The position numbers and the translations under genes were made by a program. This document shows positions 45,187-46,545 of a stretch of DNA of 64,000 nt, one piece after another. This stretch comes from Dictyostelium discoideum. Taxonomy: Eukaryota. Position 1 is the first letter of the stretch, and every line of letters begins with the position of its first letter. The notes beneath the pieces are model-generated. The model was not told the DNA's origin. It saw only the letters and a list, made by a program, of their open reading frames with translations, and searched no databases. The stretch lies in contig CM000151.3 in assembly GCA_000004695.1 (NCBI GenBank), positions 5,920,001-5,984,000 on the forward strand, in the 5' to 3' direction.

Positions 45187-45859
45187 ACATTAACCAAAAT
45201 ATTAAAGGATTGGTTTGATTGTGTATTTTTTTTGTGGATGGTTTTATGTGCAAAAAGTATTTAATTAATGGGGAAAGCTTCATTATAAAATATTTATAAA
45301 TTTTTAATAACATCATTGGTGGTCAATGTTCAGAATTGGGCTATAAACTCTGTCTAGGTTTAAACCAAGATGGGGGTGAACAATAAAAACTCATAACGGT
45401 CCTTCTTGTTTTAAGAAATTCCCATTTCGGGAAACACATTAAACGATCAACCACATTTTAAACAAAAGAAAAATTTGGAAATATTCCAAAAAAACTCAAT
45501 AAAAGTATCATTTAAAAAAAAAAAAACTTAAAAGGCACAAAGAAATTCCTTTAAGTTCTTCTCATAGGTAAAAAAACACCAAATATATATTATATTATTG
45601 TTTTTTATATTTTTTATAATTTTTTATTTTTTATTTTTTATTTTTTTTAATTATTTAAAAGGTTTATTTATTAAAAATTTTGTTTAATATAAGAAGACGG
45701 ATTTTATATAGAATTTAAATAAGAAGGATAGGTTAATGGTTTCTTATTTTGAAAGTTAATTATTAATTATTTCCGAGATTTTGGTTTATATATTTAGCAA
45801 TAATAGGGAAACTATTGATTCATCGAAAAATGAAAAAAAAATTGAAAAATAATTACAAT

Positions 45860-45910
45860 GGACGGTTGACAGGTATTTTGATCAAAGGTATTTGCTGAAA
45901 GGTCAACTTA
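45860..45910 (-). ncRNA. Class I ncRNA gene (variant motif CCTTTCAGCAA). I see no DUSE upstream of it.
   Basis: The minus strand reads AAGTTGACCTTTCAGCAAATACCTTTGATCAAAATACCTGTCAACCGTCC + ATTGTAATTATTTTTCAATTTTTTTTT. It has the 5'/3' GTTGAC/GTCAAC stem and the 11-nt motif with one mismatch. It may be a divergent or inactive member. Confidence 0.55.
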
Positions 45911-46043
45911 TGTAATTTAAAAAAAAAAAAAAAAAAAGAGTTTAATATATTAATTTGTTTTGAAAATCAGTTTAAATAAAATCAGAATTATGTTTTTTTA
46001 AAATTTTTTACTTGTTTTTTAAATCTTTTAAATAAAAAATGTT

Positions 46044-46092
46044 TACAGTTGACAAGGGGTAATCTTCAAAGGTTTGCTGTAAGGCCAACTTG
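46044..46092 (-). ncRNA. Class I ncRNA gene
   Basis: The minus strand reads AAGTTGGCCTTACAGCAAACCTTTGAAGATTACCCCTTGTCAACTGTAAAC + ATTTTTTATTT. It has the CCTTACAGCAA motif, a terminal stem and a T6 terminator. DUSE ATCCCACAA lies 65 nt upstream (plus 46156-46164). Confidence 0.8.
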
Positions 46093-46155
46093 ATGTAATT
46101 AATATTTAAATGTTATACGAATTTTGTTTTGGAATTTTTAAAATAAAAAATAACT

Positions 46156-46164
46156 TTGTGGGAT
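46156..46164 (-). promoter_or_regulatory. DUSE box (TTTATTATCCCACAAAGTT on the minus strand) about 65 nt upstream of the Class I RNA gene at 46044-46092
   Basis: It matches the [A/T]CCCA[C/T]AA consensus, and its position is the canonical ~60-nt upstream location. Confidence 0.7.
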
Positions 46165-46545
46165 AATAAAACATTATTTTCTTTAGTATTTCAAAAAAAA
46201 AAAAAAAAAAAAAAAAGTTTATCCTATAAATGGAAATTTTATTTTATTTTATTTTGTTTTGTTTTTTTTTTTGTTTTTTTTTTTTTAATAACTTAAATAT
46301 TGAATGACTATTATCAGTTTTTTTTTTTTTTAATGCCAAATTTGATGAGTGTAATACTAAAATATAATTAATTTAGAAAGATAAATACAACTGATAATAT
46401 GAATAGTCTAAAAAAAAAAAATAAAAAAATAAAAAAATTATTTTTTATTTTTATTTTATTTATTTGTTTTTATTTTTTTTCTATCTATAAAACTTTTATT
46501 ATATAATTTAACATTTATTTTATTTTATTTTATTTTATAATATTA

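Follow-up and report, generated by a model that had tools for sequence, protein, structure and literature searches.

When two members of one small RNA family lie head to tail and only one of them carries a promoter element, are both genes alive? The question arises in a window of 64,000 nucleotides of Dictyostelium discoideum AX4 chromosome 2 (DDB0232429), by which we mean the whole stretch of DNA analysed here. A preliminary description of two neighbouring Class I RNA elements on its minus strand had proposed a local duplication followed by promoter loss, that is, a live gene next to a pseudogene, or else a family member driven from an alternative promoter. We consider it likely that the pair consists of one working gene, DdR-44, and one dead, untranscribed relative, most likely produced by a small local duplication. 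The literature already contains both elements, together with the rule linking expression to an upstream DUSE, and the locus is an ordinary, documented one.

Class I RNAs are recognized by a 5′ G that follows AA, a 6-bp stem, an 11-nt motif and a near-perfectly conserved CTGT end (PMC7919456). Across all species, motif positions 3, 6, 9, 10 and 11 are near-invariant, and in Group 4 the motif is near-perfect throughout; the median length is about 60 nt and GC content ranges from 32 to 41% (PMC7919456). All expressed Class I genes have a DUSE upstream, and high-scoring candidates that lack a properly placed DUSE are unexpressed (PMC7919456). An expressed gene is also expected to show reads that have a distinct 5′ end and stay within its locus. 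Transcription by RNA polymerase III with termination at downstream T-runs has been proposed, four or more consecutive T downstream serving as a criterion (PMC7919456 and preprint). The genes are typically intergenic and clustered, and duplication has been suggested as the source of their expansion (PMC7919456 and its preprint). Class I genes turn over rapidly.

Results

Setting of the pair

Window coordinates are converted to chromosome 2 coordinates by adding 5,920,000, in agreement with the published GFF/BED and Infernal coordinates (Table 1). The two Class I elements are intergenic, flanked by an ALMT-family gene and a B-box/FNIP gene, and overlap no open reading frame. They do lie head to tail on the minus strand, as described, and their exact limits are given in Table 1. 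The gap between them measures 138 nt, close to the 135 bp first reported, and 182 nt separate the 5′ ends. The promoter-equipped copy had been called the downstream-most of the two, which is true in plus-strand coordinates only; in the direction of transcription it is the upstream one. The spacer between the copies has a GC content of 10–14%. At Rfam gathering thresholds, the whole window yields one Class I RNA, DdR-41, and two tRNAs.

Table 1. Features of the Class I pair and its surroundings, in window and chromosome 2 coordinates.
Feature	Window position	Strand	Chromosome 2 position	Remarks
DdR-41, third Class I locus in the window	26993-27050	+	5946993-5947050	curated sequence
B-box/FNIP-repeat gene	41788-43702	+		
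T5 and T9 runs downstream of second copy	45833-45849	-		T5 45845-45849, T9 45833-45841; retained terminator-like runs
Second copy, promoter-less Class I RNA copy, probable pseudogene	45863-45907	-	5965863-5965907	45 nt
AATTACATAA, directly 5′ of second copy	45908-45917	-		contains 8-mer AATTACAT; ends in conserved AA before 5′ G
T19 run, 12-30 nt upstream of second copy	45919-45937	-		T-run scan; terminator role inferred from Pol III behaviour
AAACATAA, best DUSE-like octamer upstream of second copy, not a DUSE	45988-45995	-		FIMO -0.28; 81 nt out
T6 run, 6 nt past CUGU 3′ end of DdR-44	46034-46039	-		T-run scan; probable Pol III terminator
DdR-44 (r44, DDB_G0295515), expressed short-type Class I RNA gene	46046-46089	-	5966046-5966089	44 nt
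DUSE TCCCACAA, putative promoter element of DdR-44	46156-46163	-		pattern match; 3′ end 67 nt from 5′ G
ALMT-family membrane protein gene	47005-50421	-		probable last exon 46546-46905

Both elements belong to the Class I family

The upstream element is a known gene. Read on the minus strand, its sequence, GTTGGCCTTACAGCAAACCTTTGAAGATTACCCCTTGTCAACTG, is base-for-base identical to curated DdR-44 (dictyBase DDB_G0295515; RF01414 Dicty_Class_I_RNA), which it also matches in position, DUSE, distance and expression. It is 44 nt long; counting the final U of CUGU, which the mature RNA probably includes, it extends to 46045. The gene starts with G after ...CATCAA, so that AA precedes the invariant 5′ G; its stem, GUUGGC/GUCAAC, has five Watson-Crick pairs and one G-U pair, and it carries the exact 11-nt motif CCUUACAGCAA and the canonical 3′ CTGT.

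The second copy reads GTTGACCTTTCAGCAAATACCTTTGATCAAAATACCTGTCAACCG on the minus strand, with ACCUUUGAUCAAAAUACC as its unique core. It starts with G after ...ACATAA, keeping the conserved AA, and all six pairs of its stem GUUGAC/GUCAAC are Watson-Crick. The variant motif noted in the preliminary description is indeed present as CCTTTCAGCAA, in which near-invariant positions 3, 6, 9, 10 and 11 are kept and position 5 has changed from A to T. Position 5 is A in 48 of the 49 curated D. discoideum and D. firmibasis genes, and the lone T belongs to DdR-57, with 0 reads. The 3′ end is CCG(T), an ending found in none of the same 49 genes (CTG in 47, TTG in 2). The second copy therefore carries two substitutions (motif A5 to T; 3′ CUG to CCG) at positions that are at least 96% conserved in close relatives. 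With lengths of 44 and 45 nt, the copies are short for D. discoideum, where curated members range from 42 to 141 nt and four of them measure 42–45 nt. GC content is 45% in DdR-44 and 40% in the second copy, next to the published 32–41%. In both RNAs the terminal stem is absent from the unconstrained minimum free energy fold and costs 0.7 kcal/mol to enforce, a result that is uninformative at such lengths.

Covariance models place both elements in the family. A permissive regional scan recovered each as a full-length match to RF01414, whose gathering cut-off is 41.5 bits: DdR-44 scored 34.7 bits and the second copy 21.6 bits (E 0.29 in 1 kb). DdR-44 falls below the cut-off because short-type members are without about 12–14 nt of the model's variable region, and the second copy likewise misses this part of the variable middle. 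We also used a held-out model, built from 25 expressed D. discoideum Class I RNAs with all three window loci left out and run with filters off. Across the 64-kb window it gave 70.4 bits for DdR-41, 37.4 for DdR-44 (E 1.2e-7) and 29.6 for the second copy (E 1.4e-5), the last standing 13 bits above the best background match (16.7 bits). In the published work, successive Infernal models had scored the second copy (chr2 5965907-5965863, minus strand) at 30.8, 31.9, 27.6, 25.1 and 23.8 bits; its genome-wide E was 0.0019 with the authors' D. discoideum model (30.8 bits) and 0.64 with their final pan-dictyostelid model. Under the Kjellin v6 model, DdR-44 (32.7 bits) and the second copy (23.8 bits) both lie above the entry threshold of CM >= 15. 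Pattern searches agree: GTTGRC-CTTNCAGCAA-N15-45-GTCAAC occurs three times in the window, in the pair and in DdR-41, versus 0 in 100 shuffles, and the 11-nt motif with at most one mismatch occurs three times versus 0.45 expected. Both elements are real homologues of the Class I family.

The second copy corresponds to ddi_can_3 of Kjellin et al. 2021 (Genome Res 31:436, PMC7919456; Table S2), which is listed with CM 23.8, the octamer AAACATAA, a distance of 81, no TGTG box and 0 reads. The identifier was matched to the coordinates by four concordant attributes rather than by an explicit ID-to-coordinate table; the other 23.8-bit row of Table S2 (AATCATAA at 102) does not fit the sequence. The element is listed in the authors' Infernal outputs and absent from their curated set. 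Kjellin et al. 2021 and its supplement do not name ddi_can_3 or discuss it individually, and use 'pseudogene' for no Class I candidate.

Promoter elements and T-runs

The DUSE of DdR-44, TCCCACAA, is published with a score of 12.47 and a distance of 67 (Table S2, PMC7919456). It had been placed at -65 and called canonical; the sequence is canonical, but the spacing is 67 nt, outside the 56–64 nt rewarded by the published classifier. Our distance convention reproduces the published values both here and for DdR-41 (86, with TAATGTG at 26). The classifier script of Kjellin et al. adds 5 only when 56–64 nt separate the DUSE from the start site or from the TGTG box, subtracts 5 otherwise, and applies a cut-off of 32. 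Its scores were reproduced exactly: DdR-44 takes the penalty and passes with 32.7 + 12.47 - 5 = 40.17, and the second copy reaches 23.8 - 0.28 - 5 = 18.52.

Closer inspection bore out the claim that the second copy is without a DUSE. Neither WCCCAYAA nor a relaxed DUSE occurs in the 150 nt upstream of it, a TGTG box is likewise missing, and the best octamer there is the one listed for ddi_can_3. DUSE-like octamers are not enriched across the window (8 versus 10 expected), which indicates that position is what matters. We considered whether AAACATAA might be a decayed TCCCACAA in register, pushed outward by expansion of the T19 run; alignment of the upstream flanks (z = 0.03) does not support this. 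A scan for bacterial-type promoters and terminators, a type of scan inapplicable to Dictyostelium, gave nothing above shuffle expectation.

A DdR-44 primary transcript ending in the T6 run would be 51–56 nt long. On the transcribed strand between the copies there are, besides T6, three T4 runs and the T19 run, and these make read-through from the DdR-44 promoter unlikely. A transcript of the second copy ending at its own T5 run would measure 59–63 nt.

Expression

The published small-RNA libraries cover growth, aggregates and tipped aggregates/fingers in duplicate, corresponding to 0–8 h of development, with a size selection of 18–70 nt. In these six libraries DdR-44 has 1,617–3,610 reads per library and validated coverage, and the second copy has 0 reads in all six (Table S2, PMC7919456). 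Expression of the two copies is unequal, and a live gene next to a pseudogene, as first suggested, is supported by these counts together with the missing DUSE.

How the counts were obtained matters for their reading. Because mapping in the published pipeline was restricted to full-length 50-nt reads, RNAs of 45 nt are at a disadvantage and mature RNAs of 44–46 nt were not directly counted; the text of the Kjellin supplement nowhere discusses this filter in relation to short RNAs. The DdR-44 reads probably derive from the 51–56-nt primary transcripts that would end in the T6 run. A 59–63-nt transcript of the second copy would be kept by the size selection as well as by the 50-nt filter, so the zero count for this copy is meaningful, though less sensitive than it appears. 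DdR-44 and the equally short DdR-42 were both detected by the published method (PMC7919456). DdR-62 has a perfect DUSE and a TGTG box, yet only 0–10 reads (PMC7919456), so low read numbers of short members are not always promoter-related. DdR-50 is expressed at a low level (69–117 reads) without a good DUSE (AACCATTT, score -4.4) (PMC7919456).

Origin of the second copy

Two short sequences tie the second copy to its neighbour. The first, ACCTTTGA, lies directly after the motif region of both copies and occurs in none of the 45 other curated sequences. The second, AATTACAT, lies just 5′ of both starts (46090-46100 for DdR-44) and is absent upstream of DdR-41; the null probability of sharing a non-trivial 8-mer within 2 nt of register is about 0.003. 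Because AATTACAT lies in untranscribed DNA, duplication at the DNA level is favoured over an RNA-derived copy.

The remaining flanks carry little signal. Locally aligned, the upstream flanks score 61, where shuffles average 60.8 (z = 0.03); this value was matched by 45 of 500 real A+T-rich controls. The downstream flanks fell below the shuffle mean. Flank homology beyond about 12 nt is not above chance in this test, which has low power in DNA of 86–90% A+T. Loss of a DUSE and failure to copy one are consequently indistinguishable: the duplication part of the original proposal is partly upheld by ACCTTTGA and AATTACAT, and its promoter-loss part cannot be separated from a copy that never had a DUSE. 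The RNA body alone does not single out a nearest relative, since DdR-42 (36/45, ungapped) and DdR-44 (36/48, gapped) tie in identity.

A metagenome scan with CCTTWCAGCAAAN{0,2}CCTTTGA found 56 loci, none of them Class I; with the held-out model all scored at most 19 bits, a score owed entirely to the motif used as query. In a protein collection evidently without dictyostelids, 0 matches were obtained for a conserved 210-aa segment of the protein of the neighbouring ALMT-family gene.

Discussion

We propose a model where the DUSE, 67 nt upstream, drives transcription of DdR-44, probably by RNA polymerase III, from the conserved G as far as the T6 run just past CUGU. The second copy would be a paralogue in the same short-type (42–45 nt) subfamily, derived from a small local duplication. 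Having neither DUSE nor TGTG box, and being cut off from the DdR-44 promoter by the T6 and T19 runs, it would remain untranscribed, and it may now be gathering substitutions at positions that are otherwise conserved. The pattern of its substitutions fits a fairly young, unconstrained copy, and the intact stem, motif positions, AA-G start and T-runs suggest that it is either young or was under constraint until recently. The second copy is thus most likely a silent relic of local duplication, a step we infer from the bases shared with DdR-44, and its silence is probably permanent rather than conditional.

For the dead copy another source can be considered. DdR-42 or a different short-type member might be its parent, through ectopic recombination or reverse transcription, in which case it would never have had a DUSE. 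The ungapped identity of 36/45 to DdR-42, the resemblance of the 3′ half of its core (AAAATACCTGTCAAC) to that of DdR-42 and flanks whose homology with DdR-44 is not significant past about 12 nt would all fit. We nevertheless regard such an origin as unlikely, as among 46 curated sequences ACCTTTGA is common only to DdR-44, and landing on the same strand 138 nt from a family member would be a coincidence in a family in which clustering is the norm and is attributed to duplication. An RNA-derived copy, moreover, would carry nothing upstream of its start, where AATTACAT is shared, and neither a poly(A) tail nor a target-site duplication is present around the second copy. That the resemblance to Class I RNAs arose by chance in A+T-rich intergenic DNA could be argued from the RF01414 score of 21.6 bits, well short of gathering, with E 0.29 in 1 kb, and from the genome-wide E of 0.64 under the final pan-dictyostelid model. 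It is effectively refuted by the 29.6 bits of the held-out model (E 1.4e-5, 13 bits over the best background), by a stem-motif-stem pattern whose exact form is expected 0.00 times per window, by the family member 138 nt away on the same strand, and by a GC content of 40% inside a spacer of 10–14%.

Other explanations keep the second copy alive. It could be a working gene with a DUSE-independent promoter, or one active in conditions that the libraries did not sample (slug/culmination, spores or stress). Its intact stem, invariant motif positions, AA-G start and downstream T-runs are what a working gene would retain, the RNA-seq covered three stages and counted 50-nt reads only, and DdR-50 offers a precedent for low expression without a good DUSE. 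Yet six libraries that detected the equally short DdR-44 and DdR-42 hold no read from it, a 59–63-nt transcript would have fitted both the 18–70 nt selection and the 50-nt filter, and two of its positions that are at least 96% conserved have changed; we find a working gene decidedly improbable. The alternative-promoter branch of the preliminary description is accordingly unsupported by the data, which span 0–8 h of development and 50-nt reads only. A specific form of this idea, to which we would give little credence, is a conditionally expressed variant with an A5-to-U motif and a CCGU end, transcribed without a DUSE in stages that were not sampled, or not countable, in the 2021 survey. If this were true, a DUSE-independent Class I gene would be known for the first time, and the second copy would offer a natural motif variant with which to test what the 11-nt motif binds. 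Co-transcription from the single DUSE as a two-unit precursor, from which the second copy would be processed out, is compatible with the shared strand and the 138-nt gap, and the authors leave open longer, TGTG-box-started precursors for other D. discoideum Class I genes (PMC7919456). The T6, three T4 and T19 runs on the transcribed strand between the copies, and the lack of reads over the second copy, make such a precursor very improbable indeed.

One live gene beside a silent copy also has parallels. The published D. discoideum tables contain other silent copies near expressed Class I genes on the same strand: r43 beside DdR-42, DdR-45 beside DdR-29 and ddi_can_2 beside DdR-21. Like the second copy, these three have no properly placed DUSE, and they have 0–3 reads; r43 and DdR-45 are also of the short type (43–44 nt). 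Their pairs are spaced by about 280–310 nt, whereas the DdR-44 pair is tighter, at 138 nt. In ddi_can_2 a single-base DUSE lesion is visible (TCCTACAA), while the second copy has no recognizable DUSE remnant.

A comparable situation is familiar from the vertebrate U-snRNA and 7SK/U6-type pseudogenes, in which the promoter is wholly upstream, such that a copy without it is silent even though the RNA part is intact. Many of those pseudogenes are retro-copies dispersed through the genome. The second copy, by contrast, sits in tandem with DdR-44 and has a few untranscribed bases of 5′ flank in common with it, which points to a probable duplication at the DNA level.

Beyond tidy annotation the locus is of little importance; it adds a further case of birth-and-death turnover within a noncoding RNA family that evolves fast. 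The second copy, with an intact RNA body and no promoter, may serve as a natural control for the necessity and sufficiency of the DUSE. For those who use the existing resources, the 2021 data set undercounts Class I RNAs of less than 50 nt, and short-type Class I genes, among them the expressed DdR-44, are missed at the Rfam gathering threshold.

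Results and discussion

DdR-44, a published short-type Class I RNA gene at 46046-46089 on the minus strand, scores 34.7 bits with the Rfam model RF01414 (Dicty_Class_I_RNA) and is missed at the gathering threshold of 41.5 bits, yet it is expressed (Kjellin et al. 2021, PMC7919456). Short-type Class I RNAs (42-45 nt) align to the Rfam model with a gap of 12-14 nt in its variable region, which lowers their score, and the subfamily is therefore under-called by default Rfam annotation.

Read counts of such RNAs are probably underestimates as well, because mapping in the published small-RNA-seq was restricted to full-length 50-nt reads (Kjellin et al. 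2021, PMC7919456, Methods). For the Class I RNAs below 50 nt (DdR-42, -44, -45 and -62), the published counts probably reflect 3'-extended precursors. DdR-62 has only 0-10 reads, although its DUSE (the putative upstream promoter element of Class I RNA genes) and its TGTG box are perfect (Kjellin et al. 2021, PMC7919456), and the 50-nt restriction may explain this low count.

Long T homopolymers lie near both DdR-44 and the neighbouring silent Class I copy, a promoter-less probable pseudogene (see table). Slippage in runs of this length would quickly erase alignable flank homology.

Coordinates of features in the window
Feature	Position	Strand	Remark
DdR-41	26993-27050	+	
DUSE of DdR-41	26898-26905		
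TAATGTG box of DdR-41	26959-26965		
tRNA-His(GTG) gene	27195-27266	-	
DUSE-like octamer TCCCATAA	45179-45186	+	
T19 run	45919-45937	-	12 nt upstream of silent copy
T24 run	46193-46216	-	about 30 nt upstream of DdR-44 DUSE
ALMT/FUSC-family membrane protein gene	46546-50421	-	

The top background match in the 64-kb window of our held-out Class I model, a covariance model built from 25 expressed D. discoideum Class I RNAs without the window loci, is at 3878-3926 on the plus strand (16.7 bits, E 0.04). CTTACAGGA is present in this match, but a terminal stem is not; it is probably noise, but could be a heavily decayed relic.

The DUSE-like octamer is followed, within 45179-45500 on the plus strand, by an island with a GC content of 29-32%, against 6-15% in its surroundings. 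At E<=1 the island matches no Rfam family, and its plus strand contains no ORF of at least 40 aa. Compared with shuffled sequence, the fold of the plus strand is slightly better (z = -1.79, 3/200), that of the minus strand is not (z = -0.36). The island may represent a DUSE-driven ncRNA that has not been annotated, or no more than an exon or chance.

The tRNA-His(GTG) gene is convergent with DdR-41, 144 nt away. The ALMT/FUSC-family gene carries long poly-Q and poly-N tracts, and two of its in-frame ORFs are separated by a 99-nt A+T-rich gap (46906-47004) that looks like an intron.
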